Source: Escherichia coli
GTDB taxonomy: Bacteria; Pseudomonadota; Gammaproteobacteria; Enterobacterales; Enterobacteriaceae
Length of the DNA stretch: 64,000 nucleotides
Strand: one strand, 5' to 3'
NCBI RefSeq assembly: GCF_016903815.1
Contig: NZ_CP069973.1
In this document: positions 1,860-40,510 of the stretch, piece by piece
Layout: every line of letters begins with the position of its first letter
How positions within the stretch are numbered: the stretch's first letter is position 1
Notes under the pieces: model-generated
Database searches by the model: none
The model's input: only the letters and a program-made list of their open reading frames with translations
What the model was told of the DNA's origin: nothing
Made by a program: the position numbers and the translations under genes

Positions 1860-1933
1860 TGGAGCGGGCGAAGGGAATCGAACCCTCGTATAGAGCTTGG
1901 GAAGCTCTCGTTCTACCATTGAACTACGCCCGC
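1860..1933 (-). tRNA. glyU: tRNA-Gly (anticodon CCC), glyU
   Basis: Reverse complement reads GCGGGCGTAGTTCAATGGTAGAACGAGAGCTTCCCAAGCTCTATACGAGGGTTCGATTCCCTTCGCCCGCTCCA: cloverleaf, CCC anticodon, encoded CCA. Confidence 0.93.
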
Positions 1934-2011
1934 TTCGAGATGCGTAAGGCATTATAAACCTTACGCTCTCCTTAGCAAGTGCCACGCTGCTGACTGCTGA
2001 TTAATTCGCCA

Positions 2012-2791: not shown

Positions 2792-2893
2792 GACGCCTTA
2801 TCATAGCAGCCAGCCTCTTGATACCCAATCTCTTGCTTCTGGAAAAACGTGGTAATAGAGAAAGAGGTTAATTTCATTGGTAATGACTCCAAC

Positions 2894-3397: not shown

Positions 3398-3591
3398 CCA
3401 ACGCCATTCATGGCCATATCAATGATTTTCTGGTGCGTACCGGGTTGAGAAGCGGTGTAAGTGAACTGCAGTTGCCATGTTTTACGGCAGTGAGAGCAGA
3501 GATAGCGCTGATGTCCGGCGGTGCTTTTGCCGTTACGCACCACCCCGTCAGTAGCTGAACAGGAGGGACAGCTGATAGAAACAGAAGCCAC
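3316..3591 (-). CDS. insA: IS1 InsA (DNA-binding transposition inhibitor / transposase N-terminal part)
   Basis: 91-aa [45 protein letters not shown]... zinc-finger-like CxxC...CxxC, matches IS1 InsA. Confidence 0.9.
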
Positions 3592-3918
3592 TGGAGCACC
3601 TCAAAAACACCATCATACACTAAATCAGTAAGTTGGCAGCATCACCAAGAGCGCTATCCAGATAAAAACGATTAAATGCGAGAGTGCGACATGCCAGAAT
3701 GATTAATGAAATATCAATATGAGAAAATTACAGATAATTTCATTGTCAGGTTCTCTTCTCATTTTCGTGGTTTAACCACGATTATGTGATTGCCTCCGCA
3801 ATTCCTGTCTCTAACTCCCCTTCCTCGCAAAAACTGGCACTCCACGAGCATGTGTTTAGACAGTTTCATTAACGTAAACGGTTGCTTTTTACTCTGGCGG
3901 GCGAAAGGAGAAACACTG

Positions 3919-5367: not shown

Positions 5368-5368
5368 T

Positions 5369-5494
5369 ATGAATTTTTTAATGCGCGCTATATTCAGTCT
5401 GCTGTTGCTTTTTACTCTCTCTATTCCTGTCATTTCTGACTGTGTTGCAATGGCCATTGAAAGTCGCTTCAAATATATGATGCTACTTTTTTAA
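5369..5494 (+). CDS. yqfG: Small hydrophobic protein YqfG (41 aa: MNFLMRAIFSLLLLFTLSIPVISDCVAMAIESRFKYMMLLF)
   Basis: ATG 2 nt after uacT stop with GGAG 7 nt upstream; single predicted TM helix; corresponds to small K-12 ORF recalled between ygfU and idi; below ORF-track size cutoff. Confidence 0.5.
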   Translation: MNFLMRAIFSLLLLFTLSIPVISDCVAMAIESRFKYMMLLF

Positions 5495-5616
5495 ATGGTT
5501 TTTACCTGTCGGCATCCGCTCAAAACGGGCGGTTGTCGATAAACGCTCACTTGGTTAATCATTTCACTCTTCAATTATCTATAATGATGAGTGATCAGAA
5601 TTACATGTGAGAAATT

Positions 5617-6165
5617 ATGCAAACGGAACACGTCATTTTATTGAATGCACAGGGAGTTCCCACGGGTACGCTGGAAAAGTATGCCGCACACACGGCAGAC
5701 ACCCGCTTACATCTCGCGTTCTCCAGTTGGCTGTTTAATGCCAAAGGACAATTATTAGTTACCCGCCGCGCACTGAGCAAAAAAGCGTGGCCTGGCGTGT
5801 GGACTAACTCGGTTTGTGGGCACCCACAACTGGGAGAAAGCAACGAAGACGCGGTGATCCGCCGTTGCCGTTATGAGCTTGGCGTGGAAATTACGCCTCC
5901 TGAATCTATCTATCCTGACTTTCGCTATCGCGCCACCGATCCGAATGGCATTGTGGAAAATGAAGTGTGTCCGGTATTTGCCGCACGCACCACCAGTGCG
6001 TTACAGATCAACGATGATGAAGTGATGGATTATCAATGGTGTGATTTAGCAGATGTATTACACGGTATTGATGCCACACCGTGGGCGTTCAGTCCGTGGA
6101 TGGTGATGCAGGCAGCCAATAGTGAAGCAAGAAAATTGTTGTCTACTTTCGCGCAGCACAATTAA
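5617..6165 (+). CDS. idi: Isopentenyl-diphosphate delta-isomerase (type 1, Nudix fold)
   Basis: 182-aa [44 protein letters not shown]... matches E. coli Idi. Confidence 0.93.
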
Positions 6166-6192
6166 AAAACCCCGACATTTGCCGGGGTTGTG
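6164..6192. terminator. Bidirectional intrinsic terminator between convergent idi and lysS
   Basis: AAAAAACCCCGACATTTGCCGGGGTTGTG: A-run, GC hairpin CCCCGAC/GCCGGGG, T-rich tail. Confidence 0.6.
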
Positions 6193-6207
6193 AGCATAAC
6201 GTAATGC

Positions 6208-7725
6208 TTATTTTACCGGACGCATCGCCGGGAACAGAATAACGTCGCGGATGGTATGGCTGTTGGTGAACAGCATTACCATACGGTCGATGCCAATCCC
6301 CAGACCTGCTGTCGGCGGTAAGCCATGTTCCAGTGCGGTAACGTAATCTTCATCGTAGAACATCGCTTCGTCGTCACCTGCGTCTTTCGCGGCAACCTGA
6401 TCCAGGAAGCGTTGCGCCTGATCTTCCGCGTCATTCAGCTCGCTAAAGCCGTTACCGATTTCACGACCACCGATGAAGAACTCAAAGCGGTCTGTGATTT
6501 CCGGGTTAATGTCGTTACGACGCGCCAGCGGAGAAACTTCTGCCGGATATTCAGTAATGAAGGTCGGCTGAATCAGATGTGCTTCTGCCACTTCTTCGAA
6601 GATCTCGGTAACGATACGGCCCAGACCCCAGCTCTTCTCAACGTGGATACCGATAGATTCAGCAATCGCTTTCGCAGAGTCGAAGTTATCCAGATCCGCC
6701 ATGTCGGTTTCCGGGCGATATTTCTTGATCGCTTCACGCATGGTCAGTTTTTCGAACGGTTTACCGAAGTCCAGCGTCACGTCGCCGTAGGTCACTTCCG
6801 TCTTACCGAGAATATCCTGTGCCAGAGTACGGAACAGCGATTCGGTCAGCTCGATCAGATCTTTGTAATCTGCGTAAGCCATGTAGAGTTCCATCATGGT
6901 GAACTCTGGGTTATGACGTACGGAGATACCTTCGTTACGGAAGTTACGGTTGATTTCGAATACACGCTCGAAGCCACCGACCACCAGACGCTTGAGGTAC
7001 AGTTCCGGCGCGATACGCAGGTACATGTCGAGATCCAGCGCGTTATGGTGGGTGATAAACGGACGCGCAGCGGCACCGCCAGGGATCACCTGCATCATCG
7101 GCGTTTCAACTTCCATAAAGCCGCGGTTCACCATGAACTGGCGAATACCAGAGAGGATCTGCGAGCGCACTTTAAAGGTGTTACGGGATTCATCGTTAGA
7201 GATGAGATCCAGATAACGCTGACGATAGCGCGCTTCCTGATCCTGCAAGCCGTGGAATTTATCCGGCAGCGGACGCAGTGCTTTGGTCAGCAGACGCAGC
7301 TCGGTACAGTGGATAGACAGTTCGCCGGTTTTGGTTTTGAACAGTTTACCTTTCGCGCCGAGGATGTCACCGAGGTCCCATTTTTTGAACTGCTCGTTGT
7401 AAACGCCTTCCGGCAGATCGTCACGGGCAACGTACAGCTGAATGCGGCCACCCACATCCTGCAGGGTAACGAAAGACGCTTTACCCATAATACGGCGGGT
7501 CATCATGCGGCCAGCAACGGCGACTTCGATGTTCAGCGCTTCCAGTTCTTCGTTCTCTTTACCGTCGAATTCTGCGTGCAATTGGTCAGAGGTATGATCG
7601 CGACGGAAATCGTTCGGGAAGGCAATCCCCTGCTCGCGCAGGTTCGCCAGCTTCTCACGACGCGTTTTCAGTTCATTGTTAAGATCGACTACCGCGTCAG
7701 CGCCCTGTGCGTGTTGTTCAGACAT
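6208..7725 (-). CDS. lysS: Lysyl-tRNA synthetase (constitutive, class II)
   Basis: 505-aa [36 protein letters not shown]... class II aaRS motifs; 9 nt downstream of prfB as in the prfB-lysS operon. Confidence 0.95.
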
Positions 7726-7734
7726 GTTGGTTCC

Positions 7735-8833
7735 TCATAACCCTGCTTTCAAACTTGCTTCGATAAATTGATCCAGGCTGCCGTCCAGCACGGCCTGCGT
7801 GTTGCGGGTTTCTACCCCGGTACGCAGATCTTTAATGCGGGAGTCATCAAGGACATAAGAACGAATCTGGCTGCCCCAGCCGATGTCGGATTTGTTATCT
7901 TCCATCGCCTGTTTCTCGGCATTTTTCTTCTGCATCTCCAGTTCATAAAGCTTCGCTTTCATCTGCTTCATGGCCTGGTCTTTGTTCTTGTGCTGGGAAC
8001 GGTCGTTCTGGCATTGGGTCACGATCCCGGTTGGGATGTGGGTAATACGCACCGCAGATTCGGTACGGTTAACGTGCTGACCGCCCGCGCCGGACGCGCG
8101 ATAAACGTCAATGCGCAGATCCGCCGGGTTGATTTCGATATCAATATCATCATCAACTTCCGGGTAAACAAACGCAGAGCTGAACGATGTGTGGCGACGA
8201 CCGCCGGAGTCAAACGGGCTTTTACGCACCAGGCGGTGAACGCCAGTTTCTGTACGCAGCCAGCCGTAAGCGTAATCGCCGGAGATTTTGATCGTCACGG
8301 ATTTAATACCCGCCACTTCACCTTCCGACTCTTCGATGATTTCAGTTTTGAAACCACGCGATTCTGCCCAGCGCAGATACATACGCTCAAGCATGCTCGC
8401 CCAGTCCTGTGCTTCCGTACCGCCAGACCCCGCCTGAATATCGAGGTAGCAGTCGGCGCTGTCATATTCGCCAGAGAACATACGGCGGAACTCAAGCTGC
8501 GCCAGTTTTTCTTCCAGGGCGTCGAGTTCAGCAACGGCTTCGTTAAAGGTTTCTTCGTCGTCAGCTTCTACAGCCAGTTCCAGCAGACCAGAAACATCTT
8601 CCAGCCCCTGTTTCATTTGGTCGAGAGTGTCGACAACGGCTTCGAGGGAGGAACGCTCTTTACCCAGCGCCTGTGCGCGTTCGGGTTCGTTCCAGACATC
8701 CGGCTGTTCCAGCTCGGCGTTTACTTCTTCCAGACGCTCTTTCTTGGCGTCGTAGTCAAAGATACCCCCTAAGAACGTCGGAGCGTTCCGTGAGGTCCTG
8801 AATGCGATTATTTACCGGATTAATTTCAAACAT
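7735..8833 (-). CDS. prfB: Peptide chain release factor 2, expressed via programmed +1 ribosomal frameshift at in-frame UGA codon 26
   Basis: ATG at 8833 gives [25 protein letters not shown] then TGA (8758-8756); +1 frame continues [16 protein letters not shown]... to stop at 7735 (25+340=365 aa); GGQ and SPF motifs present. Confidence 0.93.
8755..8773 (-). promoter_or_regulatory. prfB autoregulatory frameshift window: internal Shine-Dalgarno-like AGGGGG, slippery CUU UGA C
   Basis: Minus-strand sequence CTTAGGGGGTATCTTTGAC read directly; matches the canonical RF2 recoding site. Confidence 0.9.
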
Positions 8834-8923
8834 GGTCTGATTTCTTTTATTGAGCTAGTCAAAATGCGGTGATAAGAGCGGGATTGTACCCAATCCACGC
8901 TCTTTTTTATAGAGAAGATGACG

Positions 8924-10657
8924 CTAAATTGGCCAGATATTGTCGATGATAATTTGCAGGCTGCGGTTGCCGCGAAACTCGTTGATATCGAGCTTGTAAG
9001 CCAGTTGCACTTCGCGCACGCCGTTATCCGGCCAGAGGGCGGTATCGACATTAAAAGCAATACCATCCAGCAGTGGACCGCCGCCGACCGGTTCGACCAT
9101 CACCTTCAAATGACGTTCGCCCACCAGCCGCTGTTGCAGCAGACGGAAATGACCGTCAAACAGCGGCTCCGGGAACATCTGCCCCCACGGGCCAGCATCG
9201 CGCAGCAACTGCGCCACTTCCATGGTCATTTCGGCCGGGCTTAACGGACCGTCTGACACCACTTCGCCTTGCAATAGCGAAGGGTCCAGCCACTCTGTAA
9301 CCAGTTCGCCAAACCGTTGTTGAAAGAGTTCGAATTTATCCTCTTCCAGCGACAAACCCGCCGCCATCGCATGACCGCCAAACTTCAGTATCATGCCAGG
9401 GTAGAGTGTGTCTAATCGCTCCAGTGCATCACGCATATGCAGCCCCTGAATGGAGCGACCTGAACCTTTCAGCGTACCATCACCTGCTGGCGCAAAGGCG
9501 ATAACCGGACGGTGAAAACGCTCTTTGATGCGCGAAGCCAGAATACCGACAACGCCCTGATGCCATTCGGGGTGATACATTGCCAGCCCGCCGGGTAGCG
9601 TGTCGCGACTTCGCTCCAGTTTCTCGCACAGGGTCAGGGCTTCAACTTGCATTCCTTGTTCGATCTCTTTTCGCGTCTGGTTTAGCGCATCGAGTTCATT
9701 TGCCAGCACGCGCGCTTCGCCGATGTTGTCGCACAGCAAGAGCGCCACACCGACGGACATATCGTCCAGTCGTCCGGCAGCATTGAGACGTGGCCCCAGC
9801 GCAAAACCTAAATCGCTGGCGGCGAGTTTTTGTGCATCACGGTTTGCCACTTCCAGCAGCGCTTTAATCCCTGGACGGCACTTTCCGGCACGGATGCGAC
9901 TCATCCCCTGCCAGGTCAGAATGCGATTATTAGCGTCCAGCGGCACGACGTCCGCCACTGTTCCCAGCGCGACCAGATCCAGCAGTTCTGCCAGGTTAGG
10001 AATTGCGATGCCACGCTCATAAAACCAGCCCTGATCGCGCAAAAAGGTGCGCAGCGCCAGCATCAGATAAAACGCCACACCCACGCCTGCCAGTGATTTC
10101 GACGGGAAATTACAGTCGCGCAAGTTAGGGTTAATGATCGCTTCCGCTGCGGGTAATGTTTCGCCCGGCAAATGGTGATCGGTAACAATAACCGGAATGC
10201 CCAACGAGCGAGCGTGTTCAACGCCCGCATGGGAGGAAATACCGTTATCCACCGTGACAATTAACTGCGCGCCACGGGCATGGGCCTGATCGACTACTTC
10301 CGGGCTTAAGCCGTAACCGTCTTCGAAACGGTTTGGTACCAGATAGTCGATATTGCTGCAACCAAGCGAGCGCATCGCCAGCACGCTTAGAGCCGTGCTG
10401 GTCGCGCCGTCGGCATCAAAATCACCAACCACAATAATCCGCGTTCCTTCGCGAAAAGCGTTGTAAAGGATCTCAACGGCCTTTTCGACGCCGCTCAGTT
10501 GCTGCCAGGGCAGCATACCTTTAACACTGCGTTCCAGTTCTTGCGCACTGCGTACTCCCCGGCTGGCGTATAAACGGCGCAGCAAGGGAGGCAATTCAGC
10601 GGGCAAGTCTGCCGTTTCATCGACTTCACGGCGACGAAGTTGTATCTGTTGTTTCAC
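8924..10657 (-). CDS. recJ: Single-stranded-DNA-specific 5'-3' exonuclease RecJ (DHH family)
   Basis: 577-aa ORF; DHH motif (VVGDFDADGATS, VTDHH), matches RecJ. Confidence 0.95.
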   Translation of the reverse strand: MKQQIQLRRREVDETADLPAELPPLLRRLYASRGVRSAQELERSVKGMLPWQQLSGVEKAVEILYNAFREGTRIIVVGDFDADGATSTALSVLAMRSLGCSNIDYLVPNRFEDGYGLSPEVVDQAHARGAQLIVTVDNGISSHAGVEHARSLGIPVIVTDHHLPGETLPAAEAIINPNLRDCNFPSKSLAGVGVAFYLMLALRTFLRDQGWFYERGIAIPNLAELLDLVALGTVADVVPLDANNRILTWQGMSRIRAGKCRPGIKALLEVANRDAQKLAASDLGFALGPRLNAAGRLDDMSVGVALLLCDNIGEARVLANELDALNQTRKEIEQGMQVEALTLCEKLERSRDTLPGGLAMYHPEWHQGVVGILASRIKERFHRPVIAFAPAGDGTLKGSGRSIQGLHMRDALERLDTLYPGMILKFGGHAMAAGLSLEEDKFELFQQRFGELVTEWLDPSLLQGEVVSDGPLSPAEMTMEVAQLLRDAGPWGQMFPEPLFDGHFRLLQQRLVGERHLKVMVEPVGGGPLLDGIAFNVDTALWPDNGVREVQLAYKLDINEFRGNRSLQIIIDNIWPI

Positions 10658-10662
10658 GCGAA

Positions 10663-11373
10663 TTATTTACCGCTGGTCATTTTTTGGTGTTCGTCGAGGA
10701 ATTCTTTCATCTCTTTCGGCGGCTGGTAACCCGGGACAAGTGTGCCATTGCTCAGCACAACTGCCGGAGTACCGCTAACGCCAAGCTGGACGCCAAGTGC
10801 GTAATGGTCGGCAATATCCACGTCGCAACTGGCTGGTGCGACGCTTTTACCTGCAATCACATCATCAAACGCTTTGTTTTTATCTTTCGCACACCAGATA
10901 GCTTTCATTTCTTTCTCTGCATCGCTGTCCAGCCCCTGGCGCGGGAAGGCAAGATAACGCACGGTGATCCCCAGCGCGTTATAGTCTGCCATTTGCTCAT
11001 GCAGTTTGTGGCAGTAACCACAGGTAATATCAGTAAACACGGTGATGACGTGTTTTTCCTGCGGTGCTTTATAAACGATCATCTCTTTTTCAAGCGCATT
11101 CAACTGCTTTAACAGCATCTTATTGGTGACATTGACCGGAGCCGTGCCGCTAACGTCATACATTGGCCCCTGAATGATATGTTTACCGTCATCGGTGATG
11201 TACAACACACCGCTGTTAGTCAGCACAGTCTTCATGCCAGCCACGGGTGCTGGCTGAATATCGCTGCTTTTAATGCCCATTTTGGCTAACGTTTGTTGAA
11301 TTGCCGCGTCATCCGCCTGAACAAAGCCTGAAAACGCCGCCAACAACGTAAATAACATAAAACCTTTCTTCAT
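10663..11373 (-). CDS. dsbC: Periplasmic thiol:disulfide interchange protein DsbC (start at MKKGFMLF rather than the longer ORF)
   Basis: Signal peptide, thioredoxin CGYC active site (ITCGYCHKLH), matches DsbC; 6 nt upstream of recJ. Confidence 0.93.
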   Translation of the reverse strand: MKKGFMLFTLLAAFSGFVQADDAAIQQTLAKMGIKSSDIQPAPVAGMKTVLTNSGVLYITDDGKHIIQGPMYDVSGTAPVNVTNKMLLKQLNALEKEMIVYKAPQEKHVITVFTDITCGYCHKLHEQMADYNALGITVRYLAFPRQGLDSDAEKEMKAIWCAKDKNKAFDDVIAGKSVAPASCDVDIADHYALGVQLGVSGTPAVVLSNGTLVPGYQPPKEMKEFLDEHQKMTSGK

Positions 11374-11396
11374 AAATCGTCCTATTTTCTCAGCAA

Positions 11397-12293
11397 TCAA
11401 GCCCGCGGGTGATGCTGTTGATGAAGTTGACGCAAACGCTCGGTGGCGACATGCGTATAAATTTGGGTGGTGGATAGATCGCTATGACCCAACAACATCT
11501 GCACCACACGTAAATCCGCACCATGATTTAATAAATGAGTGGCAAAAGCGTGACGCAACACATGCGGTGACAGCTTTTCGCTGTCGATACCCGCCAGCAC
11601 GGCATAATGTTTAATGCGGTGCCAGAAGGTCTGTCGCGTCATCTGCTGCGCACGCTGGCTGGGGAACAACACATCAATAGAGACACCGTTCAACAACCAC
11701 GGTCGCCCATGCTCGAGATACGTTTCCAGCCAGTAAACCGCCTCTTCACCTAACGGCACCAGGCGCTCTTTGTTGCCTTTACCAATGACCCGCACTACGC
11801 CCTGACGCAGGCTGATATCACTCATTGTCAGTCCGACCAGTTCAGAGACACGCAGCCCGGTAGCATACAACACTTCAAGCATGGCTTTATCGCGTAGCTC
11901 CAGTGGCTGATCAATTAATGGTGCCTGTAATAAACGTTCGACCTGCGCTTCGCTTAAATCTTTTGGCAAACGCTGTGGCAATTTCGGTGAAGCGAGATGC
12001 GCACTGGGATCGTCTTCACGAAACTTTTCGCGATAAAGATACTGGAACAATCGGCGCACTGCACTCAGCAAACGTGCCGAGCTGGTGGCTTTATACCCGC
12101 CCTCCAGCCTTTCTGCCAGTAATGCCTGCAAATCGTCACTTTGCGCCGTCGCCAGCGTCAACCCGCGGTGATGCAACCACTCCACCATCATTGACAGATC
12201 GCGACGGTAAGCGTTCAACGTATTTTCAGCCAGATTTTTTTCCAGCCACAGAGCATCAAGAAACTGCTCGATGCGTGCCAGATCCTGTTTCAC
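11397..12293 (-). CDS. xerD: Site-specific tyrosine recombinase XerD
   Basis: 298-aa ORF; tyrosine recombinase catalytic residues (R...HxxR...Y: LRHAFATHLLNHGADLRVVQMLLGHSDLSTTQIYTHV). Confidence 0.95.
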   Translation of the reverse strand: MKQDLARIEQFLDALWLEKNLAENTLNAYRRDLSMMVEWLHHRGLTLATAQSDDLQALLAERLEGGYKATSSARLLSAVRRLFQYLYREKFREDDPSAHLASPKLPQRLPKDLSEAQVERLLQAPLIDQPLELRDKAMLEVLYATGLRVSELVGLTMSDISLRQGVVRVIGKGNKERLVPLGEEAVYWLETYLEHGRPWLLNGVSIDVLFPSQRAQQMTRQTFWHRIKHYAVLAGIDSEKLSPHVLRHAFATHLLNHGADLRVVQMLLGHSDLSTTQIYTHVATERLRQLHQQHHPRA

Positions 12294-12404
12294 TTGCGCC
12301 CCTTATGGTCACTCATTTGATCCATTATGCCTTATTGTGCCGTGACTAAAGCGATTCTGATACACTAGCCGCAAAAGCCACAGCAGAATCGAGAAGCTTA
12401 CGTT

Positions 12405-12926
12405 ATGAATATGGGTCTTTTTTACGGTTCCAGCACCTGTTACACCGAAATGGCGGCAGAAAAAATCCGCGATATTATCGGCCCAGAACTGGTGACCTTA
12501 CATAACCTCAAGGACGACTCCCCGAAATTAATGGAGCAGTACGATGTGCTCATTCTGGGTATCCCGACCTGGGATTTTGGTGAAATCCAGGAAGACTGGG
12601 AAGCCGTCTGGGATCAGCTCGACGACCTGAACCTCGAAGGTAAAATTGTTGCGCTGTATGGGCTTGGCGATCAACTGGGATACGGCGAGTGGTTCCTCGA
12701 TGCGCTCGGTATGCTGCATGACAAACTCTCGACCAAAGGCGTGAAGTTCGTCGGCTACTGGCCAACGGAAGGATATGAATTTACCAGCCCGAAACCGGTG
12801 ATTGCTGACGGGCAACTGTTCGTGGGGCTGGCGCTGGACGAAACTAACCAGTATGACCTTAGCGACGAGCGTATTCAGAGCTGGTGTGAACAAATCCTCA
12901 ACGAAATGGCAGAGCATTACGCCTGA
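12405..12926 (+). CDS. fldB: Flavodoxin 2
   Basis: 173-aa [26 protein letters not shown]... long-chain flavodoxin FMN-binding N-terminus. Confidence 0.93.
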
Positions 12927-12959
12927 TGTCACTGACGGCTTAGCGCATATGCTTTGCCG

Positions 12960-13632
<673 letters not shown>

Positions 13633-13862
13633 TCACGAAAATCCAGTACCCCGCTATTGTAACGTGTTTTTCGACTTCTTTTACGGGAATATCAGTAAAC
13701 ACAATCGCGATCGCGAAATTAATTCACAACAATTCAAGGGCTTCATTTTTTTGGAAGTCGCCTCGCAGAAGGCACAGATCGCGTAGTGAAAGCACTTGCA
13801 TTGCCTCATAGCTCTTTTACCATTAGTCATTAATACGCCGTTAAGCAACTCAGGACTCTATT

Positions 13863-14843
13863 ATGGCTTTTACACCTTTTCCTCCCCGTCAGCCTACGGC
13901 TTCTGCCCGTTTACCGCTGACACTGATGACGCTTGATGACTGGGCGCTTGCCACCATTACTGGCGCGGACAGCGAAAAATATATGCAGGGTCAGGTGACA
14001 GCAGACGTCAGCCAGATGACAGAAGATCAGCACCTGCTGGCCGCCCATTGCGACGCCAAAGGTAAAATGTGGAGCAATTTACGTCTGTTCCGCGACGGCG
14101 ATGGCTTTGCGTGGATTGAACGGCGCAGCGTGCGTGAACCGCAGCTGACTGAACTGAAAAAATATGCGGTATTCTCTAAAGTGACCATCGCGCCAGACGA
14201 CGAGCGTGTGCTGCTTGGTGTTGCCGGTTTTCAGGCGCGCGCCGCGCTGGCAAACCTCTTTAGTGTATTACCTTCGAAGGAAAAGCAGGTTATCAGAGAA
14301 GATGCGACTACCCTGCTATGGTTTGAACACCCGGCAGAACGTTTCCTGATCGTAACCGATGAAGCTACTGCCAATATGCTGACCGATAAACTGCGCGGTG
14401 AAGCGGAACTGAACAATAGCCAACAGTGGCTGGCATTAAACATTGAAGCGGGTTTCCCGGTGATTGATGCCGCCAACAGCGGGCAGTTTATTCCACAGGC
14501 GACCAATCTCCAGGCGCTGGGCGGTATCAGCTTTAAGAAAGGCTGCTATACCGGACAAGAGATGGTGGCGCGAGCAAAATTCCGTGGTGCCAACAAACGC
14601 GCGCTCTGGTTGCTGACAGGTAGTGCCAGCCGACTGCCGGAAGCTGGTGAAGATTTAGAGCTGAAAATGGGCGAGAACTGGCGTCGCACCGGTACGGTGC
14701 TGGCTGCGGTAAAACTGGAAGATGGTCAGGTCGTGGTACAGGTCGTCATGAATAACGATATGGAACCGGACAGCATCTTCCGCGTGCGTGACGATGCGAA
14801 TACACTGCATATCGAGCCGCTGCCGTATTCGCTCGAAGAGTAA
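13863..14843 (+). CDS. ygfZ: tRNA-modifying / Fe-S cluster repair folate-binding protein YgfZ
   Basis: 326-aa ORF with GcvT-like fold and conserved KGCYTGQE motif. Confidence 0.9.
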
Positions 14844-14852
14844 ATCTCTGTA

Positions 14853-14907
14853 TCGCATCAGGCATTTATCGCCTGATGCGACGCTGACGCGTCTTATCAT
14901 GCCTACA
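14853..14907. repeat. REP (palindromic unit) element downstream of ygfZ
   Basis: CGCATCAGGC...GCCTGATGCGACGCTGACGCGTCTTATCATGCCTAC matches REP/PU consensus. Confidence 0.75.
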
Positions 14908-31810: not shown

Positions 31811-32041
31811 TCAGACCCCGTTGGCAAGCCGCGTGGTTAACTCATCCATAAAATATCGCGCAATGGCAGGCATCCCCTTTCGCCCCGCAAATAAGGCATG
31901 CAACAATCTGGGTATGCCGCTCCACGGAGCAAACAGGCGCACCAGTTCACCGTTCACAAGCCCCTGTTTACAGGCAAATTGAGGCAATAACGCCACGCCA
32001 TTCAACACAACCAGGGCGCGAACTCGCTGAGCGAAATGCAT
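31811..32041 (-). pseudogene. yqfE: LysR-family regulator C-terminal fragment (yqfE-like remnant)
   Basis: 76-aa ORF resembling only the C-terminal co-inducer domain of a LysR regulator; no HTH domain upstream. Confidence 0.45.
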
Positions 32042-32182: not shown

Positions 32183-33076
32183 ATGAAACGCCCGGACTAC
32201 AGAACATTACAGGCACTGGATGCGGTGATACGTGAACGAGGATTTGAGCGCGCGGCACAAAAGCTGTGCATTACACAATCAGCCGTCTCACAGCGCATTA
32301 AGCAACTGGAAAATATGTTCGGGCAGCCGCTGTTGGTGCGTACCGTACCGCCGCGCCCGACGGAACAAGGGCAAAAACTGCTGGCACTGCTGCGCCAGGT
32401 GGAGTTGCTGGAAGAAGAGTGGCTGGGCGATGAACAAACCGGTTCGACTCCGCTGCTGCTTTCACTGGCGGTCAACGCCGACAGTCTGGCGACGTGGTTG
32501 CTTCCTGCACTGGCTCCTGTGTTGGCTGATTCGCCTATCCGCCTCAACTTGCAGGTAGAAGATGAAACCCGCACTCAGGAACGTCTGCGCCGCGGCGAAG
32601 TGGTCGGCGCGGTGAGTATTCAACATCAGGCGCTGCCGAGTTGTCTTGTCGATAAACTTGGTGCGCTCGACTATCTGTTCGTCAGCTCAAAACCCTTTGC
32701 CGAAAAATATTTCCCTAACGGCGTAACGCGTTCGGCATTACTGAAAGCGCCAGTGGTCGCGTTTGACCATCTTGACGATATGCACCAGGCCTTTTTGCAG
32801 CAAAACTTCGATCTGCCTCCAGGCAGCGTGCCCTGCCATATCGTTAATTCTTCAGAAGCGTTCGTACAACTTGCTCGCCAGGGCACCACCTGCTGTATGA
32901 TCCCGCACCTGCAAATCGAGAAAGAGCTGGCCAGCGGTGAACTGATTGACTTAACGCCTGGGCTATTTCAACGACGGATGCTCTACTGGCACCGCTTTGC
33001 TCCTGAAAGCCGCATGATGCGTAAAGTCACTGATGCGTTACTCGATTATGGTCACAAAGTCCTTCGTCAGGATTAA
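32183..33076 (+). CDS. argP: LysR-family transcriptional regulator ArgP (IciA); start at [10 protein letters not shown]
   Basis: 297-aa protein; N-terminal HTH ([35 protein letters not shown]). Confidence 0.93.
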
Positions 33077-33279
33077 TCTATCAAATAATGCCTGATAGCA
33101 CATATCAGGCGTTGTCCTCACTTCTTTTTGTATTCCTTGAATCACATCACAAAATAGACAAATCTCAGGCGGCAAAAAACGACGTCTGAATGCATTTTTT
33201 TTGCTGGCGACAAACCCACGTAAAAAGCTCACCGTAGGCGCAAATACCCTCATTTTGATTGCGTTTTACGGAGCAAATA

Positions 33280-35424
33280 ATGTCTAACGTGCAGGAGTGG
33301 CAACAGCTTGCCAACAAGGAATTGAGCCGTCGGGAGAAAACTGTCGACTCGCTGGTTCATCAAACCGCGGAAGGGATCGCCATCAAGCCGCTGTATACCG
33401 AAGCCGATCTCGATAATCTGGAGGTGACAGGTACCCTTCCTGGTTTGCCGCCCTACGTTCGTGGCCCGCGTGCCACTATGTATACCGCCCAACCGTGGAC
33501 CATCCGTCAGTATGCTGGTTTTTCAACAGCAAAAGAGTCCAACGCTTTTTATCGCCGTAACCTGGCCGCCGGGCAAAAAGGTCTTTCCGTTGCGTTTGAC
33601 CTTGCCACCCACCGTGGCTACGACTCCGATAACCCGCGCGTGGCGGGCGACGTCGGCAAAGCGGGCGTCGCTATCGACACCGTGGAAGATATGAAAGTCC
33701 TGTTCGACCAGATCCCGCTGGATAAAATGTCGGTTTCGATGACCATGAATGGCGCAGTGCTACCAGTACTGGCGTTTTATATCGTCGCCGCAGAAGAGCA
33801 AGGTGTTACACCTGATAAACTGACCGGCACCATTCAAAACGATATTCTCAAAGAGTACCTCTGCCGCAACACCTATATTTACCCACCAAAACCGTCAATG
33901 CGCATTATCGCCGACATCATCGCCTGGTGTTCCGGCAACATGCCGCGATTTAATACCATCAGTATCAGCGGTTACCACATGGGTGAAGCGGGTGCCAACT
34001 GCGTGCAGCAGGTAGCATTTACGCTCGCTGATGGGATTGAGTACATCAAAGCAGCAATCTCTGCCGGACTGAAAATTGATGACTTCGCTCCTCGCCTGTC
34101 GTTCTTCTTCGGCATCGGCATGGATCTGTTTATGAACGTCGCCATGTTGCGTGCGGCACGTTATTTATGGAGCGAAGCGGTCAGTGGATTTGGCGCACAG
34201 GACCCGAAATCACTGGCGCTGCGTACCCACTGCCAGACCTCAGGCTGGAGCCTGACTGAACAGGATCCGTATAACAACGTTATCCGCACCACCATTGAAG
34301 CGCTGGCTGCGACGCTGGGCGGTACTCAGTCACTGCATACCAACGCCTTTGACGAAGCGCTTGGTTTGCCTACCGATTTCTCAGCACGCATTGCCCGCAA
34401 CACCCAGATCATCATCCAGGAAGAATCAGAACTCTGCCGCACCGTCGATCCACTGGCCGGATCCTATTACATTGAGTCGCTGACCGATCAAATCGTCAAA
34501 CAAGCCAGAGCTATTATCCAACAGATCGACGAAGCCGGTGGCATGGCGAAAGCGATCGAAGCAGGTCTGCCAAAACGAATGATCGAAGAGGCCTCAGCGC
34601 GCGAACAGTCGCTGATCGACCAGGGCAAGCGTGTCATCGTTGGTGTCAACAAGTACAAACTGGATCACGAAGACGAAACCGATGTACTTGAGATCGACAA
34701 CGTGATGGTGCGTAACGAGCAAATTGCTTCGCTGGAACGCATTCGCGCCACCCGTGATGATGCCGCCGTAACCGCCGCGTTGAACGCCCTGACTCACGCC
34801 GCACAGCATAACGAAAACCTGCTGGCTGCCGCTGTTAATGCCGCTCGCGTTCGCGCCACCCTGGGTGAAATTTCCGATGCGCTGGAAGTCGCTTTCGACC
34901 GTTATCTGGTGCCAAGCCAGTGTGTTACCGGCGTGATTGCGCAAAGCTATCATCAGTCTGAGAAATCGGCCTCCGAGTTCGATGCCATTGTTGCGCAAAC
35001 GGAGCAGTTCCTTGCCGACAATGGTCGTCGCCCGCGCATTCTGATCGCTAAGATGGGCCAGGATGGACACGATCGCGGCGCGAAAGTGATCGCCAGCGCC
35101 TATTCCGATCTCGGTTTCGACGTAGATTTAAGCCCGATGTTCTCTACACCTGAAGAGATCGCCCGCCTGGCCGTAGAAAACGACGTTCACGTAGTGGGCG
35201 CATCCTCACTGGCTGCCGGTCATAAAACGCTGATCCCGGAACTGGTCGAAGCGCTGAAAAAATGGGGACGCGAAGATATCTGCGTGGTCGCGGGTGGCGT
35301 CATTCCGCCGCAGGATTACGCCTTCCTGCAAGAGCGCGGCGTGGCGGCGATTTATGGTCCAGGTACACCTATGCTCGACAGTGTGCGCGACGTACTGAAT
35401 CTGATAAGCCAGCATCATGATTAA
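33280..35424 (+). CDS. scpA: Coenzyme B12-dependent methylmalonyl-CoA mutase (Sbm/ScpA); start at MSNVQEWQQ
   Basis: 714-aa protein; C-terminal B12-binding DxHxxG motif ([11 protein letters not shown]). Confidence 0.93.
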
Positions 35425-36412
35425 TGAAGCCACGCTGGCAGAAAGTATTCGCCGCTTACGTCAGGGTGAGCGTGCCACACTCGCCCAGGCCATGACGCTG
35501 GTGGAAAGCCGTCACCCGCGTCATCAGGCACTAAGTACGCAGCTGCTTGATGCCATTATGCCGTACTGCGGTAACACCCTGCGACTGGGCGTTACCGGCA
35601 CCCCCGGCGCGGGGAAAAGTACCTTTCTTGAGGCCTTTGGCATGTTGTTGATTCGAGAGGGATTAAAGGTCGCGGTTATTGCGGTCGATCCCAGCAGCCC
35701 GGTCACTGGCGGTAGCATTCTCGGGGATAAAACCCGCATGAATGACCTGGCGCGTGCCGAAGCGGCGTTTATTCGCCCGGTACCATCCTCCGGTCATCTG
35801 GGCGGTGCCAGTCAGCGAGCGCGGGAATTAATGCTGTTATGCGAAGCAGCGGGTTATGACGTAGTGATTGTCGAAACGGTTGGCGTCGGGCAGTCGGAAA
35901 CAGAAGTCGCCCGCATGGTGGACTGTTTTATCTCGTTGCAAATTGCCGGTGGCGGCGATGATCTGCAGGGCATTAAAAAAGGGCTGATGGAAGTGGCTGA
36001 TCTGATCGTTATCAACAAAGACGATGGCGATAACCATACCAATGTTGCCATTGCCCGGCATATGTACGAGAGTGCCCTGCATATTCTGCGACGTAAATAC
36101 GACGAATGGCAGCCACGGGTTCTGACTTGTAGCGCACTGGAAAAACGTGGAATCGATGAGATCTGGCACGCCATCATCGACTTCAAAACCGCGCTAACTG
36201 CCAGTGGTCGTTTACAACAAGTGCGGCAACAACAATCGGTGGAATGGCTGCGTAAGCAGACCGAAGAAGAAGTACTGAATCACCTGTTCGCGAATGAAGA
36301 TTTCGATCGCTATTACCGCCAGACGCTTTTAGCGGTCAAAAACAATACGCTCTCACCGCGCACCGGCCTGCGGCAGCTCAGTGAATTTATCCAGACGCAA
36401 TATTTTGATTAA
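35417..36412 (+). CDS. argK: MeaB/ArgK-type G-protein chaperone for methylmalonyl-CoA mutase
   Basis: 331-aa ORF; P-loop GTPGAGKST; start overlaps scpA stop by 8 nt. Confidence 0.92.
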
Positions 36413-36422
36413 AGGAATTTTT

Positions 36423-37208
36423 ATGTCTTATCAGTATGTTAACGTTGTCACTATCAACAAAGTGGCGGTCATTGAGTTTAACTATGGCCGAAAACTTAAT
36501 GCCTTAAGTAAAGTCTTTATTGATGATCTTATGCAGGCGTTAAGCGATCTCAACCGGCCGGAAATTCGCTGTATCATTTTGCGCGCACCGAGTGGATCCA
36601 AAGTCTTCTCCGCAGGTCACGATATTCACGAACTGCCGTCTGGCGGTCGCGATCCGCTCTCCTATGATGATCCATTGCGTCAAATCACCCGCATGATCCA
36701 AAAATTCCCGAAACCGATCATTTCGATGGTGGAAGGTAGTGTTTGGGGTGGCGCATTTGAAATGATCATGAGTTCCGATCTGATCATCGCCGCCAGTACC
36801 TCAACCTTCTCAATGACGCCTGTAAACCTCGGCGTCCCGTATAACCTGGTCGGCATTCACAACCTGACCCGCGACGCGGGCTTCCACATTGTCAAAGAGC
36901 TGATTTTTACCGCTTCGCCAATCACCGCCCAGCGCGCGCTGGCTGTCGGCATCCTCAACCATGTTGTGGAAGTGGAAGAACTGGAAGATTTCACCTTACA
37001 AATGGCGCACCACATCTCTGAGAAAGCGCCGTTAGCCATTGCCGTTATCAAAGAAGAGCTGCGTGTACTGGGCGAAGCACACACCATGAACTCCGATGAA
37101 TTTGAACGTATTCAGGGGATGCGCCGCGCGGTGTATGACAGCGAAGATTACCAGGAAGGGATGAACGCTTTCCTCGAAAAACGTAAACCTAATTTCGTTG
37201 GTCATTAA
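36423..37208 (+). CDS. scpB: Methylmalonyl-CoA decarboxylase (crotonase fold); start at MSYQYVNVV
   Basis: 261-aa enoyl-CoA hydratase/isomerase family protein. Confidence 0.92.
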   Translation: MSYQYVNVVTINKVAVIEFNYGRKLNALSKVFIDDLMQALSDLNRPEIRCIILRAPSGSKVFSAGHDIHELPSGGRDPLSYDDPLRQITRMIQKFPKPIISMVEGSVWGGAFEMIMSSDLIIAASTSTFSMTPVNLGVPYNLVGIHNLTRDAGFHIVKELIFTASPITAQRALAVGILNHVVEVEELEDFTLQMAHHISEKAPLAIAVIKEELRVLGEAHTMNSDEFERIQGMRRAVYDSEDYQEGMNAFLEKRKPNFVGH

Positions 37209-37231
37209 TCCCTGCGAACGAAGGAGTAAAA

Positions 37232-38710
37232 ATGGAAACTCAGTGGACAAGGATGACCGCCAATGAAGCGGCAGAAATTATCCAGCATAACGACATGGTG
37301 GCATTTAGCGGCTTTACCCCGGCGGGTTCGCCGAAAGCCCTACCCACCGCGATTGCCCGCAGAGCTAACGAACAGCATGAGGCCAAAAAGCCGTATCAAA
37401 TTCGCCTTCTGACGGGTGCGTCAATCAGCGCCGCCGCTGACGATGTACTTTCTGACGCCGATGCTGTTTCCTGGCGTGCGCCATATCAAACATCGTCCGG
37501 TTTACGTAAAAAGATCAATCAGGGCGCGGTGAGTTTCGTTGACCTGCATTTGAGCGAAGTGGCGCAAATGGTCAATTACGGTTTCTTCGGCGACATTGAT
37601 GTTGCCGTCATTGAAGCATCGGCACTGGCACCGGATGGTCGAGTCTGGTTAACCAGCGGGATCGGTAATGCGCCGACCTGGCTGCTGCGGGCGAAGAAAG
37701 TGATCATTGAACTCAATCACTATCACGATCCGCGCGTTGCAGAACTGGCGGATATTGTGATTCCTGGCGCGCCACCGCGGCGCAATAGCGTGTCGATCTT
37801 CCATGCAATGGATCGCGTCGGTACCCGCTATGTGCAAATCGATCCGAAAAAGATTGTCGCCGTCGTGGAAACCAACTTGCCCGACGCCGGTAATATGCTG
37901 GATAAGCAAAATCCCATGTGCCAGCAGATTGCCGATAACGTGGTCACGTTCTTATTGCAGGAAATGGCGCATGGGCGTATTCCGCCGGAATTTCTGCCGC
38001 TGCAAAGTGGCGTGGGCAATATCAATAATGCGGTAATGGCGCGTCTGGGGGAAAACCCGGTAATTCCTCCGTTTATGATGTATTCGGAAGTGCTACAGGA
38101 ATCGGTGGTGCATTTACTGGAAACCGGCAAAATCAGCGGGGCCAGCGCCTCCAGCCTGACAATCTCGGCCGATTCCCTGCGCAAGATTTACGACAATATG
38201 GATTACTTTGCCAGCCGCATTGTGTTGCGTCCGCAGGAGATTTCCAATAACCCGGAAATCATCCGTCGTCTGGGCGTCATCGCTCTGAACGTCGGCCTGG
38301 AGTTTGATATTTACGGGCATGCCAACTCAACACACGTAGCCGGGGTCGATCTGATGAACGGCATCGGCGGCAGCGGTGATTTTGAACGCAACGCGTATCT
38401 GTCGATCTTTATGGCCCCGTCGATTGCTAAAGAAGGCAAGATCTCAACCGTCGTGCCAATGTGCAGCCATGTTGATCACAGCGAACACAGCGTCAAAGTG
38501 ATCATCACCGAACAAGGGATCGCCGATCTGCGCGGTCTTTCCCCGCTTCAACGCGCCCGCACTATCATTGATAATTGTGCACATCCTATGTATCGGGATT
38601 ATCTGCATCGCTATCTGGAAAATGCGCCTGGCGGACATATTCACCACGATCTTAGCCACGTCTTCGACTTACACCGTAATTTAATTGCAACCGGCTCGAT
38701 GCTGGGTTAA
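37232..38710 (+). CDS. scpC: Propionyl-CoA:succinate CoA transferase
   Basis: 492-aa ORF, acetyl-CoA hydrolase/transferase family. Confidence 0.92.
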   Translation: METQWTRMTANEAAEIIQHNDMVAFSGFTPAGSPKALPTAIARRANEQHEAKKPYQIRLLTGASISAAADDVLSDADAVSWRAPYQTSSGLRKKINQGAVSFVDLHLSEVAQMVNYGFFGDIDVAVIEASALAPDGRVWLTSGIGNAPTWLLRAKKVIIELNHYHDPRVAELADIVIPGAPPRRNSVSIFHAMDRVGTRYVQIDPKKIVAVVETNLPDAGNMLDKQNPMCQQIADNVVTFLLQEMAHGRIPPEFLPLQSGVGNINNAVMARLGENPVIPPFMMYSEVLQESVVHLLETGKISGASASSLTISADSLRKIYDNMDYFASRIVLRPQEISNNPEIIRRLGVIALNVGLEFDIYGHANSTHVAGVDLMNGIGGSGDFERNAYLSIFMAPSIAKEGKISTVVPMCSHVDHSEHSVKVIITEQGIADLRGLSPLQRARTIIDNCAHPMYRDYLHRYLENAPGGHIHHDLSHVFDLHRNLIATGSMLG

Positions 38711-39603
38711 TGACTCGTCCCGTCACGATCTTCAGCAATATGCTGAAGCATCGTGGCGGTATAACGATGATTTCTGATTGAATAAAGATATTCCTGCATA
38801 TACATCGGCCTGTGCGGTGCATCAAAATATTTCAGCGTTGCCGGATTCACCAGTCGCCAGGCAAAATGCGGGATCACCGTCAGAAAATGTCCGCGCTCCA
38901 CGGCGCTGATTTTGGCCATAAAACTGTAGGGACGATAAATAATGGTTGGATTGATCCCACAAGGTCGCATATTCGCATCAATCATTGCTTCGAAGTTGGC
39001 CCGGTTCTGAAAGCGCATTTGTAGCCAGGGCAGCTCCTGAAGCAGCTCTTGCTCTTGTCGCTCTTCATAACGGCGAGAAACGAGAAAGCCTAATCGCAGC
39101 GGTGGTAGTTCACTGATAGTCAGGTTTTCCAGTTCCTGAACTCGTGCAGATACATGCTGTGGGGAGATAATAAAATCTAACTGGCGGTCAAAAAGATTAT
39201 CGATAACGCCATTTTCGCTGAACTCAACTGGCTGGGCGGTCACGCCTTCATACTTATCTCCGAGACTAATCAACTGATCGAAAATAATTGTCGGATAAGT
39301 ATTATCTATGCCAATCACAATTTCTCGTGAACGACGTCCTGAGTTATGGATTTCATTATCAATCGCAGAAAGCCGTTGATAAACCGGGAACAGTTTTTGA
39401 TACAGTTCCTGTCCGGCTTTATTGAGGCTGATATTATTATCTTTGCGGGTAAATAGCGTATAGCCAATTTGTTCTTCCAGCGCGGCAATGCTTTTACCAA
39501 ATGGCGAAGCCGTCATATGGATTTTTTCTGCCGCCCGGGCAATATTATTGGTTTGCGCTAATAAAATGAAATTGCGCATCTTTTTCGAAATAAAAATGTC
39601 CAT
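38707..39603 (-). CDS. ygfI: LysR-family transcriptional regulator YgfI; start at MDIFISKKMRNF
   Basis: 298-aa protein with N-terminal HTH; convergent with scpC, 4-nt overlap of stops. Confidence 0.85.
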   Translation of the reverse strand: MDIFISKKMRNFILLAQTNNIARAAEKIHMTASPFGKSIAALEEQIGYTLFTRKDNNISLNKAGQELYQKLFPVYQRLSAIDNEIHNSGRRSREIVIGIDNTYPTIIFDQLISLGDKYEGVTAQPVEFSENGVIDNLFDRQLDFIISPQHVSARVQELENLTISELPPLRLGFLVSRRYEERQEQELLQELPWLQMRFQNRANFEAMIDANMRPCGINPTIIYRPYSFMAKISAVERGHFLTVIPHFAWRLVNPATLKYFDAPHRPMYMQEYLYSIRNHRYTATMLQHIAEDRDGTSH

Positions 39604-39769
39604 CCCCCTCCCCCGCATCCTTGTCCGCTTAACCGTTTCAGTCAGCCTATCCTTGATGAAACCGCGAGCAAAGATAGGTGATTACGTCATGGTTTTACAG
39701 AAAATTACAGAAAAAGGAGGCAATATCGGGTAAAGGCATTAGCCCGACGAATACGTCGGGCTACAAATA

Positions 39770-40510
39770 TTATTGTGCTGCAGGTGTTTTAGCGGGTTGT
39801 TGATCCACAGGTTCTAACTGGAAGACCACATCGACCTGATCATCAAACTGAATAGCGGCCTGCTCGTAAGTTTCCTGGGCGGACACCGGCGCGGCATCGG
39901 CTTTCATCATCCGCACCATTGGGCTGGGCTGATAGTTGGAAACATGGTAGCGCACGCTATATACCGGCCCCAGTTTACGATGAAAGCCGTTCGCCAGTTC
40001 CTGCGCCTGATGAATCGCGTTATCAATCGCTGCCTTACGCGCTTTGTCTTTATAGGCATCCGGCTGCGCCACGCCCAGCGACACAGAACGAATTTCGTTA
40101 AGACCCGCCTTCAGCGCGCCATCCAGCAAGGAATTCAGTTTGTCTAACTGACGGAGCGTGACTTCCACCGTTCTCACAGCGCGGTAGCCTTTAAGGATAC
40201 TTTTACCATCCTGATAATCATAATCTGGCTGGGTGCGTAAGTTTGCTGAGCTGATATCTTTTTTCGCGATCTGATTGAGTTCAAGGAAGGAAATGTATTG
40301 TGCGACGCGCTCATCTGCCTGTTTTTTGGCAGTAGCGGCATCCTTCGCGGCCACGTTAACTTCAATCGCAAGAGTGGCAATGTCTGGCACCGCATCCACG
40401 CTTGCCGTACCGGAGGTGACAATATGCGGTCCATCCGGCAATTCGTTAGCCTGCGCTGCCATCCCGCTAATACCCATTAATGCCGCCAGGGCGATAACTT
40501 TGAACTTCAC
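39770..40510 (-). CDS. yggE: Periplasmic SIMPL/DUF541-family protein YggE
   Basis: 246-aa ORF with signal peptide MKFKVIALAALMGISGMAAQA. Confidence 0.88.
   Translation of the reverse strand: MKFKVIALAALMGISGMAAQANELPDGPHIVTSGTASVDAVPDIATLAIEVNVAAKDAATAKKQADERVAQYISFLELNQIAKKDISSANLRTQPDYDYQDGKSILKGYRAVRTVEVTLRQLDKLNSLLDGALKAGLNEIRSVSLGVAQPDAYKDKARKAAIDNAIHQAQELANGFHRKLGPVYSVRYHVSNYQPSPMVRMMKADAAPVSAQETYEQAAIQFDDQVDVVFQLEPVDQQPAKTPAAQ

Follow-up and report, generated by a model that had tools for sequence, protein, structure and literature searches.

An intact sleeping beauty mutase operon, protein-identical to that of K-12, in an Escherichia coli chromosome

Escherichia coli does not make vitamin B12 (PMC3850637), and its operon for a B12-dependent route from succinate to propionate is described as poorly expressed, cryptic or silent, and its promoter as weak or inactive (PMC3850637, PMC5391575). 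The presence of such an operon in a 64,000-nt stretch of E. coli DNA (contig NZ_CP069973.1, hereafter the window) raises the question of whether its genes are intact, whether they make up a complete pathway and whether they still have a role. The locus is almost certainly the chromosomal E. coli "sleeping beauty mutase" operon, intact and identical in its proteins to that of K-12. Its features and neighbours are the following:

argP, 32183-33076, plus strand: LysR-family regulator, annotated in strain 7/2 and in K-12 and matching the NCBIfam ArgP/LysG model (418 bits vs a cutoff of 197)
argP-scpA spacer, 33077-33279, plus strand: 203 nt, with the scpA Shine-Dalgarno sequence GGAG at 33270-33273
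hairpin 3′ of argP, 33090-33110, plus strand: 8-bp core stem GCCUGAUA/UAUCAGGC, loop GCACA
scpA (sbm), 33280-35424, plus strand: 714 aa, ATG at 33280
argK (ygfD/meaB), 35417-36412, plus strand: 331 aa, ATG at 35417
scpB (ygfG), 36423-37208, plus strand: 261 aa, Shine-Dalgarno sequence AGGA at 36413-36416
scpC (ygfH), 37232-38710, plus strand: 492 aa, stop codon at 38708-38710, Shine-Dalgarno sequence AGGAG at 37222-37226
srsR (ygfI), 38707-39603, minus strand: LysR-family regulator by annotation and by the SrsR equivalog NF047842 (635 bits vs a cutoff of 425)

The four open reading frames lie on the plus strand exactly where a preliminary description had placed them, its gene calls being right to the base. 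The order scpA-argK-scpB-scpC known for the sbm operon was found on one strand, with tight junctions and intact frames. Direct reading of the junctions bore out the 8-nt overlap between scpA and argK (ATGATTAA, with the scpA stop codon TAA at 35422-35424) and the gaps of 10 nt (36413-36422) between argK and scpB and of 23 nt (37209-37231) between scpB and scpC. The LysR-type gene said to converge on the operon from downstream is indeed srsR/ygfI; it overlaps scpC by 4 nt, both stop codons lying within TTAA, which leaves no intergenic room for a terminator between the two genes. The upstream side had been misread, since argP was called divergent but is the tandem upstream neighbour of scpA on the same strand, 203 nt away. 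It is yqfE and rpiA, on the far side of argP, that diverge from it.

Alignment to the proteins of E. coli K-12 MG1655 gave 100% amino acid identity for each of ScpA, ArgK, ScpB, ScpC, ArgP and SrsR/YgfI. All six genes equal their K-12 counterparts in length and, in this comparison, contain neither frameshifts nor internal stops, so that the earlier claim of intactness stands. At the DNA level, only 3 nt in 7,421 differ from K-12 MG1655, namely one synonymous base each in argK and srsR and a single spacer base between argP and scpA, argP itself being identical in nucleotides as well as amino acids. The K-12 operon (b2917-b2920; sbm-ygfD-ygfG-ygfH) has the same order, overlap, gaps and flanking genes, argP and srsR/ygfI, and differs in nothing of functional consequence. 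Furthermore, many E. coli chromosomes annotated with scpA/meaB/scpB/scpC share 100% DNA identity over 6 kb. The operon is thus an ordinary one, already characterised through biochemistry, structures and metabolic engineering. A foreign origin was considered from base composition and rejected, as GC content shows no sharp boundary: it is 0.49-0.58 along the operon and 0.46-0.54 in the flanking DNA, with a modest rise across the 3′ end of scpA and the 5′ end of argK.

The domain, equivalog-model and catalytic-motif checks all support the gene identities and the operon architecture first proposed, and Pfam and NCBIfam E-values of 6e-47 to 0 with full-length coverage exclude chance. ScpA contains the mutase domain PF01642 (E 8e-235; residues 28-539, model positions 1-511 of 512) and a C-terminal B12-binding domain (PF02310, residues 586-701), and exceeds the cutoff of equivalog NF006944 (1252 bits vs 876). 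The cobalamin signature DxHxxG...SxL...GG is present as DGHDRG at 595, which aligns with the equivalent motif of human MMUT, and SSL...GG at 642-673. ScpA scores 928 bits against human MMUT and 900 bits against MutB of P. shermanii. Because ScpA is 100% identical to the biochemically characterised K-12 protein, it would act as an adenosylcobalamin-dependent methylmalonyl-CoA mutase interconverting succinyl-CoA and (2R)-methylmalonyl-CoA. The human MMUT-MMAA, P. shermanii MutAB and M. extorquens MCM-MeaB systems have the same two-domain mutase, with a TIM barrel and a B12-binding Rossmann domain carrying DxHxxG, and share with ScpA-ArgK a G3E GTPase partner. ScpA resembles the human enzyme in being encoded by one gene; the operon holds no second (β) subunit gene such as MutAB has. 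Its partners in E. coli are a decarboxylase and a CoA-transferase, not the genes of a propionate-catabolic or Wood-Werkman setting.

ArgK matches PF03308 (E 3e-126; residues 22-294, model positions 1-272 of 273) and NF006958 (494 bits vs a cutoff of 329), aligns end to end with the E. coli structure 2P67 (730 bits), scores 303 bits against M. extorquens MeaB and carries the Walker A motif GTPGAGKS at 61 and NKDD at 200. Its gene adjoins and overlaps that of the mutase, and physical interaction of K-12 ArgK with the mutase was reportedly observed by Froese in 2009. Judged by its domain, structural match and motifs, ArgK is the G3E-family GTPase chaperone of the mutase. The 20 nt preceding argK hold no Shine-Dalgarno sequence, whereas scpA, scpB and scpC each have one. 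Together with the overlap, this suggests that translation of argK is coupled to termination of scpA. The four genes are probably co-transcribed; 13 terminator-like matches occur inside the operon against 8.2 ± 2.6 expected, all of them weak, and none has the canonical form, a G+C-rich stem with a U-run immediately after it.

ScpB matches PF00378, equivalog NF008506 (487 bits vs a cutoff of 257, coverage 1-261 of 261) and, over its full length (1-261), the E. coli structures 1EF8/1EF9 and 6N92-6N97. His66 and Tyr140, which we take from the structural literature to be the catalytic residues of the active site, are both present, and ScpB is accordingly annotated here as the predicted biotin-independent, crotonase-fold methylmalonyl-CoA decarboxylase. 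ScpC combines PF02550 (residues 1-213) with PF13336 (residues 317-461), exceeds the cutoff of the YgfH subfamily model TIGR03458 (752.9 vs 658.7 bits) and scores 553 bits against 2NVV and 439 bits against Acetobacter aceti AarC (4EU3). AarC, a succinyl-CoA:acetate CoA-transferase, and acetyl-CoA hydrolase/transferase relatives in the PDB have the same two-domain class I fold family, whose ...SEV... and GxGGxxDF motifs are kept in ScpC as YSEV at 284 and GIGGSGDF at 377. ScpC nevertheless falls in the YgfH subfamily, with propionyl-CoA/succinate as the characterised acyl pair (PMC3850637) instead of the succinyl-CoA/acetate of AarC, and its assignment is that of propionyl-CoA:succinate CoA-transferase.

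Work published on these very proteins (PMC3850637, PMC5391575, PMC5512728) has established the mechanism, a cycle. ScpC would transfer CoA from propionyl-CoA to succinate, yielding succinyl-CoA and propionate; ScpA with adenosylcobalamin, bound by the ArgK/MeaB GTPase chaperone, would rearrange succinyl-CoA into methylmalonyl-CoA; and ScpB would close the cycle by decarboxylating methylmalonyl-CoA to propionyl-CoA. The net reaction would be succinate to propionate and CO2. The pathway would probably depend on imported B12; the annotation of the K-12-collinear region holds no cob, cbi or btu genes. The Wood-Werkman route of Propionibacterium and the routes of Veillonella and Propionigenium run through the same succinyl-CoA, methylmalonyl-CoA, propionyl-CoA and propionate, with CoA recycled to succinate. 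ScpB is a soluble, biotin-independent enzyme of the crotonase fold, whereas Propionibacterium uses a transcarboxylase, and Veillonella and Propionigenium a membrane Na+ pump (biotin methylmalonyl-CoA decarboxylase). In addition, these routes use a methylmalonyl-CoA epimerase, while the E. coli operon has no accompanying epimerase gene.

It is on this last point that the pathway, called complete at the outset, needs qualification: all four genes are intact, but completeness itself is contested in the literature (PMC5512728 vs PMC10832534, PMC5391575 and Haller 2000). According to PMC5512728, the native operon is incomplete for want of an epimerase, and propionate appeared in glucose minimal medium only when the methylmalonyl-CoA epimerase gene (mce) of P. 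acidipropionici was added. That study also credits the operon with enhanced breakdown of amino acids and with making isoleucine degradation possible. The operon could thus be intact and the pathway nonetheless incomplete, ScpA giving only (2R)-methylmalonyl-CoA and ScpB needing the (2S) form, such that without an epimerase no propionate would arise from succinate and the enzymes would act on propionyl-CoA or (S)-methylmalonyl-CoA from amino-acid breakdown instead. An epimerase is indeed missing from the operon itself (Pfam, NCBIfam) and from the 68 annotated features of the K-12 region collinear with positions ~3650-64000 of the window. On the other side, three studies found ScpA and ScpB to suffice. 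In P. taiwanensis, where no epimerase is known, scpA and scpB yielded propionyl-CoA in mineral salt medium (PMC10832534), and sbm-ygfD-ygfG alone gave 2.34 g/L propionate in NBS-glucose medium (PMC5391575). In vitro, a coupled assay with ScpA and ScpB also turned succinyl-CoA into propionyl-CoA (Haller 2000, quoted by PMC5512728 and PMC10832534). Acceptance by ScpB of the (2R) enantiomer made by ScpA is hence argued against by PMC5512728 and implied by PMC10832534 and by Haller 2000 in the form quoted. Weighing both sides, incompleteness of the pathway is a possible but rather unlikely reading.

Whether the intact operon is in use is a separate matter. The poor expression and the lack of B12 synthesis put forward in the preliminary description agree with the literature (PMC3850637, PMC5391575). 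No plus-strand match to a σ70 consensus-like promoter was found in the argP-scpA spacer, and the region as a whole has 5 matches against 6.9 ± 2.6 expected, no better than chance, in a crude consensus scan that misses σS or activator-dependent promoters. A search of 32900-39900 at E<=1 gave 0 matches to a cobalamin riboswitch or any other Rfam RNA family. Since neither a consensus-like promoter nor a riboswitch was found, native expression is probably weak. SrsR/YgfI was considered as a regulator of the operon and rejected, because scpA, scpB, scpC, argK and sbm are nowhere mentioned in the SrsR paper (PMC9181523).

The operon is not universal in the species. The full-length locus is kept in ~79% of 5,425 genomes, from diverse lineages and at 98-100% identity, and the four gene names occur in the PGAP annotation of 31/31 full-coverage matches sampled evenly along the ranking, as judged by gene name. 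In ~21% of complete E. coli genomes, most of the operon is gone through one shared 4,273-nt deletion, counted from genomes with one place versus two places (1,144 vs 4,280). For a junction-spanning query, a coverage criterion of at least 80% was dropped, as a nearby 63-nt deletion in most carriers brings coverage down to 78%. What remains after the deletion is a ScpA'-'ScpC chimera in frame, and this ORF is still open in 3 of 4 genomes inspected, although two further deletions followed. Its dN/dS of 0.13-0.15 relative to the window was set aside as a sign of selection, since the value includes time before the deletion as well as the intact lineage. Carriers include the type strain ATCC 11775 and Seattle 1946 (ATCC 25922), both of which we take to belong to phylogroup B2; a literature search returned nothing linking the operon to that phylogroup. 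Other lineages show separate IS1-mediated losses.

Its deletion in about a fifth of the genomes indicates that the operon is dispensable. It could then be a cryptic relic without a current physiological role, intact here only for lack of time to decay, as the 4.27-kb deletion, the IS1-mediated losses, the reported silence of a weak or inactive promoter, the lack of a promoter-like site or riboswitch and the inability to make B12 would suggest. We consider this unlikely, given the retention of the locus at high identity in most genomes, the intactness of every catalytic motif and the presence of all four gene names throughout the sample. It is quite improbable, in turn, that lineages have or lack the operon through an adaptive polymorphism and not through neutral decay, with the chimeric ORF possibly retained for some function.

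The spacer upstream of scpA bears on a further alternative. The hairpin begins 14 nt past the argP stop codon and folds as RNA at -17.9 kcal/mol (z = -4.2 vs shuffles). The nearest T-run (33125-33129) lies 15 nt downstream of it, too far for a canonical intrinsic terminator of plus-strand transcription; the hairpin may serve as an argP terminator or insulator. An operon that lacks its own promoter and relies chiefly on read-through transcription from argP, with its expression thereby linked to ArgP autoregulation, would fit the position of argP on the same strand, the spacer without a consensus-like promoter and the hairpin without an adjacent U-run, but is very unlikely, as so stable a hairpin could terminate or pause transcription and the scan could have missed other promoter types.

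The intact, K-12-like sbm operon is therefore the reading to retain. Its value as a discovery is small, this being the reference operon, already known. The analysis corrects the orientation of argP, points out that the label "complete" glosses over a dispute on methylmalonyl-CoA stereochemistry and records that about a fifth of E. coli genomes have lost the operon. The K-12-identical copy of this strain could be activated for the engineering of propionate, 1-propanol or odd-chain products. Should the presence of the operon prove to be an adaptive polymorphism, carriers of an intact copy could profit in the gut from cross-feeding of succinate and B12.

The four genes at 33280-38710 are the reference sbm operon (scpA-argK-scpB-scpC), a real and correctly identified feature which, being the reference copy, has been described before and holds little interest in itself. 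The operon and its neighbours are as follows.

32183-33076, + strand, argP, 203 nt upstream of scpA
33280-35424, + strand, scpA, 714 aa
35417-36412, + strand, argK (meaB), 331 aa
36423-37208, + strand, scpB, 261 aa
37232-38710, + strand, scpC, 492 aa
38707-39603, - strand, srsR (ygfI), LysR-type, convergent on scpC

A list of the ORFs, together with the junctions read from the sequence, placed the four + strand genes exactly where the preliminary description had them, and reproduced the 8-nt overlap in which the argK ATG lies within the final codons of scpA (ATGATTAA), the gaps of 10 nt (argK-scpB) and 23 nt (scpB-scpC), and the convergent LysR-type gene downstream, which is srsR on the - strand. 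That description is to be corrected in the orientation of argP, given as divergent from scpA but in fact co-directional with it on the + strand, and requires a caveat on the word "complete". At the other end, scpC and srsR overlap by 4 nt (38707-38710), their stop codons having TTAA in common, which leaves no intergenic terminator. Because of this convergent overlap, any transcript of scpC must extend antisense into srsR, and any of srsR antisense into scpC; transcriptional interference between the two genes is possible. Between rpiA and argP, and divergent from argP, lies a 231-nt ORF (31811-32041, - strand), which corresponds to the yqfE pseudogene of K-12 and measures 186 nt in strain HH45. 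In other strains, PGAP names the ORF at this position either a hypothetical protein or a fragment with a LysR substrate-binding domain; it is probably what is left of a LysR-type gene.

The operon was described as intact, and the alignment to K-12 proposed as a check confirms this. A position-by-position comparison of both DNA and proteins with MG1655 (NC_000913.3), over the 7,421 nt from argP through srsR, revealed only three base differences: argK and srsR have a synonymous change each, and the third lies in the argP-scpA spacer. The operon is intact because all six genes (argP, scpA, argK, scpB, scpC and srsR) equal those of K-12 in length and in start and stop codons and contain no internal stops; the six proteins are 100% identical to their K-12 counterparts. 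Likewise, many E. coli chromosomes on which scpA, meaB, scpB, scpC and srsR are annotated match a 6-kb query around the operon at 100% identity. The argP-to-srsR block, at 99.96% identity, also resembles K-12 noticeably more than the DNA around it does: identity to K-12 is 99.33% across the collinear 49 kb (14871-64000) and 98.0% across 3647-14901.

At its left end (1-3920), the window is not collinear with K-12 and contains the following features.

1-1054, IS3 transposase fragment
1089-1634, - strand, ygeQ fragment
1860-1933, - strand, tRNA-Gly
2012-2767, - strand, actS (ygeR)
2894-3591, - strand, IS1A, directly abutting uacT
from 3919, uacT

In K-12, ygeR and uacT are presumably separated by a long gene block running from xdhABC through ygfT/ghxQ, of which only ghxQ, ygfS and ygfT were confirmed in the annotation just upstream of uacT. 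The arrangement of the window, found in only 36 of 5,426 genomes, looks like an IS1-bounded deletion.

The gene identities of the preliminary description are upheld by family models and signature motifs in all four proteins. Each matches its Pfam and NCBIfam models end to end, with scores over the curated cutoffs.

Family assignments of the four proteins
ScpA: PF01642 and PF02310; NF006944, 1252 bits (cutoff 876)
ArgK: PF03308; NF006958, 494 bits (cutoff 329)
ScpB: PF00378; NF008506, 487 bits (cutoff 257)
ScpC: PF02550 and PF13336; TIGR03458, 753 bits (cutoff 659)

ArgK and ScpB match solved E. coli structures over their full length (2P67 for ArgK; 1EF8/1EF9 and 6N92-6N97 for ScpB), while ScpA is similar to human MMUT (928 bits) and P. 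shermanii MutB (900 bits), and ScpC to 2NVV (553 bits) and A. aceti AarC (439 bits). The motifs found were DGHDRG at 595 and SxL...GG in ScpA, GTPGAGKS at 61 and NKDD at 200 in ArgK, both His66 and Tyr140 in ScpB, and YSEV at 284 and GIGGSGDF at 377 in ScpC.

According to the literature on these proteins (PMC5512728, PMC3850637, PMC5391575), ScpC passes CoA from propionyl-CoA to succinate, ScpA with adenosylcobalamin converts succinyl-CoA into methylmalonyl-CoA, and ScpB decarboxylates the latter to propionyl-CoA, ArgK acting as the GTPase partner of the mutase. Whether this cycle is "complete" is the only substantive problem with the earlier interpretation. Gonzalez-Garcia et al. (PMC5512728) argued that ScpA yields (2R)-methylmalonyl-CoA, yet methylmalonyl-CoA decarboxylases use the (2S) form. 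The annotation of the collinear K-12 region lists neither an epimerase nor cobalamin genes. On the other side, a coupled ScpA and ScpB assay was successful in vitro (Haller et al. 2000, as quoted in PMC10832534), scpA and scpB supported propionyl-CoA formation in P. taiwanensis in mineral medium without a known epimerase (PMC10832534), and in NBS-glucose medium sbm-ygfD-ygfG alone led to a propionate titre of 2.34 g/L (PMC5391575). With literature for and against, and no epimerase annotated in the collinear region, completeness of the four-gene pathway is therefore graded as probable.

The operon was reported to be silent, cryptic or hardly expressed, possibly through a weak promoter, in an organism which does not synthesise cobalamin (PMC3850637, PMC5391575), in agreement with the preliminary description. 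A consensus scan of the argP-scpA spacer detected no promoter-like site on the + strand, and Rfam no riboswitch or other RNA family; the sequence thus fits weak or silent expression, short of proof. The spacer contains a very stable hairpin (33090-33110, within 33085-33115; -17.9 kcal/mol, z = -4.2) located 14 nt past the argP stop and lacking an adjacent U-run, so that the operon may be transcribed by read-through from argP. Because the + strand T-run is 15 nt away, it was flagged as terminator-like on the - strand only; it may terminate argP, insulate scpA or work in both directions. A Shine-Dalgarno core precedes the start codon by 5-6 nt in scpA, scpB and scpC, and none was found for argK. 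This, together with the overlap with scpA, suggests that argK is likely translated by termination-reinitiation coupling.

The 6-kb query was matched in 5,425 of 5,426 complete E. coli genomes, and at least 80% of the operon is covered in only 4,275 of the 5,425. The remainder mostly keep about 20%, consisting of the first ~1 kb of scpA fused to the final 154 nt of scpC. The four genomes examined, HH45, Z0117EC0117, the type strain ATCC 11775 and 09-02E, carry an identical 4,273-nt deletion flanked by the imperfect 15-nt direct repeats CCGCACCACCATTGA (34284-34298) and CCGCACTATCATTGA (38557-38571). A junction-spanning query was found at one contiguous place in about 1,144 genomes, versus 4,280 with the halves far apart. 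The remnants were located in four loci taken from other E. coli genomes.

L003, 3001-4056, operon remnant
L007, 1501-2658, operon remnant
L008, 1501-2595, operon remnant
L009, 1501-2557, operon remnant

Since scpC is read in frame +1 with respect to scpA, the deletion joins the two in frame as a ScpA'-'ScpC chimera. Three of the four genomes retain it as an open ORF (386 codons in HH45, 365 in Z0117EC0117 and 352 in ATCC 11775), and in 09-02E it is frameshifted; the shorter ORFs have lost a further 63 and 39 nt in frame, and the four genomes form a nested series. PGAP calls the remnant two pseudogene fragments, and its dN/dS against the window, 0.13-0.15, is compatible with either selection or decay. 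Strain MB51 (locus L010, 4001-5507) lost the operon independently, by an IS1-mediated deletion from scpA into srsR: only scpA nt 1-576 remain, 100% identical to the window, followed by IS1A and a helix-turn-helix gene fragment, presumably the srsR 5′ end. Some genomes at 100% operon coverage depart from the 5,431-nt length (H31, 5,430 nt; H38, 5,449 nt; H42, 5,430 nt; H46, 5,421 nt), which points to small indels, whether genuine frameshifts or errors of assembly. A single common deletion of 4,273 nt has removed the greater part of the operon from about 21% of complete E. coli genomes and, since the off-length copies suggest indels, a truly intact operon is present in somewhat less than 79%.
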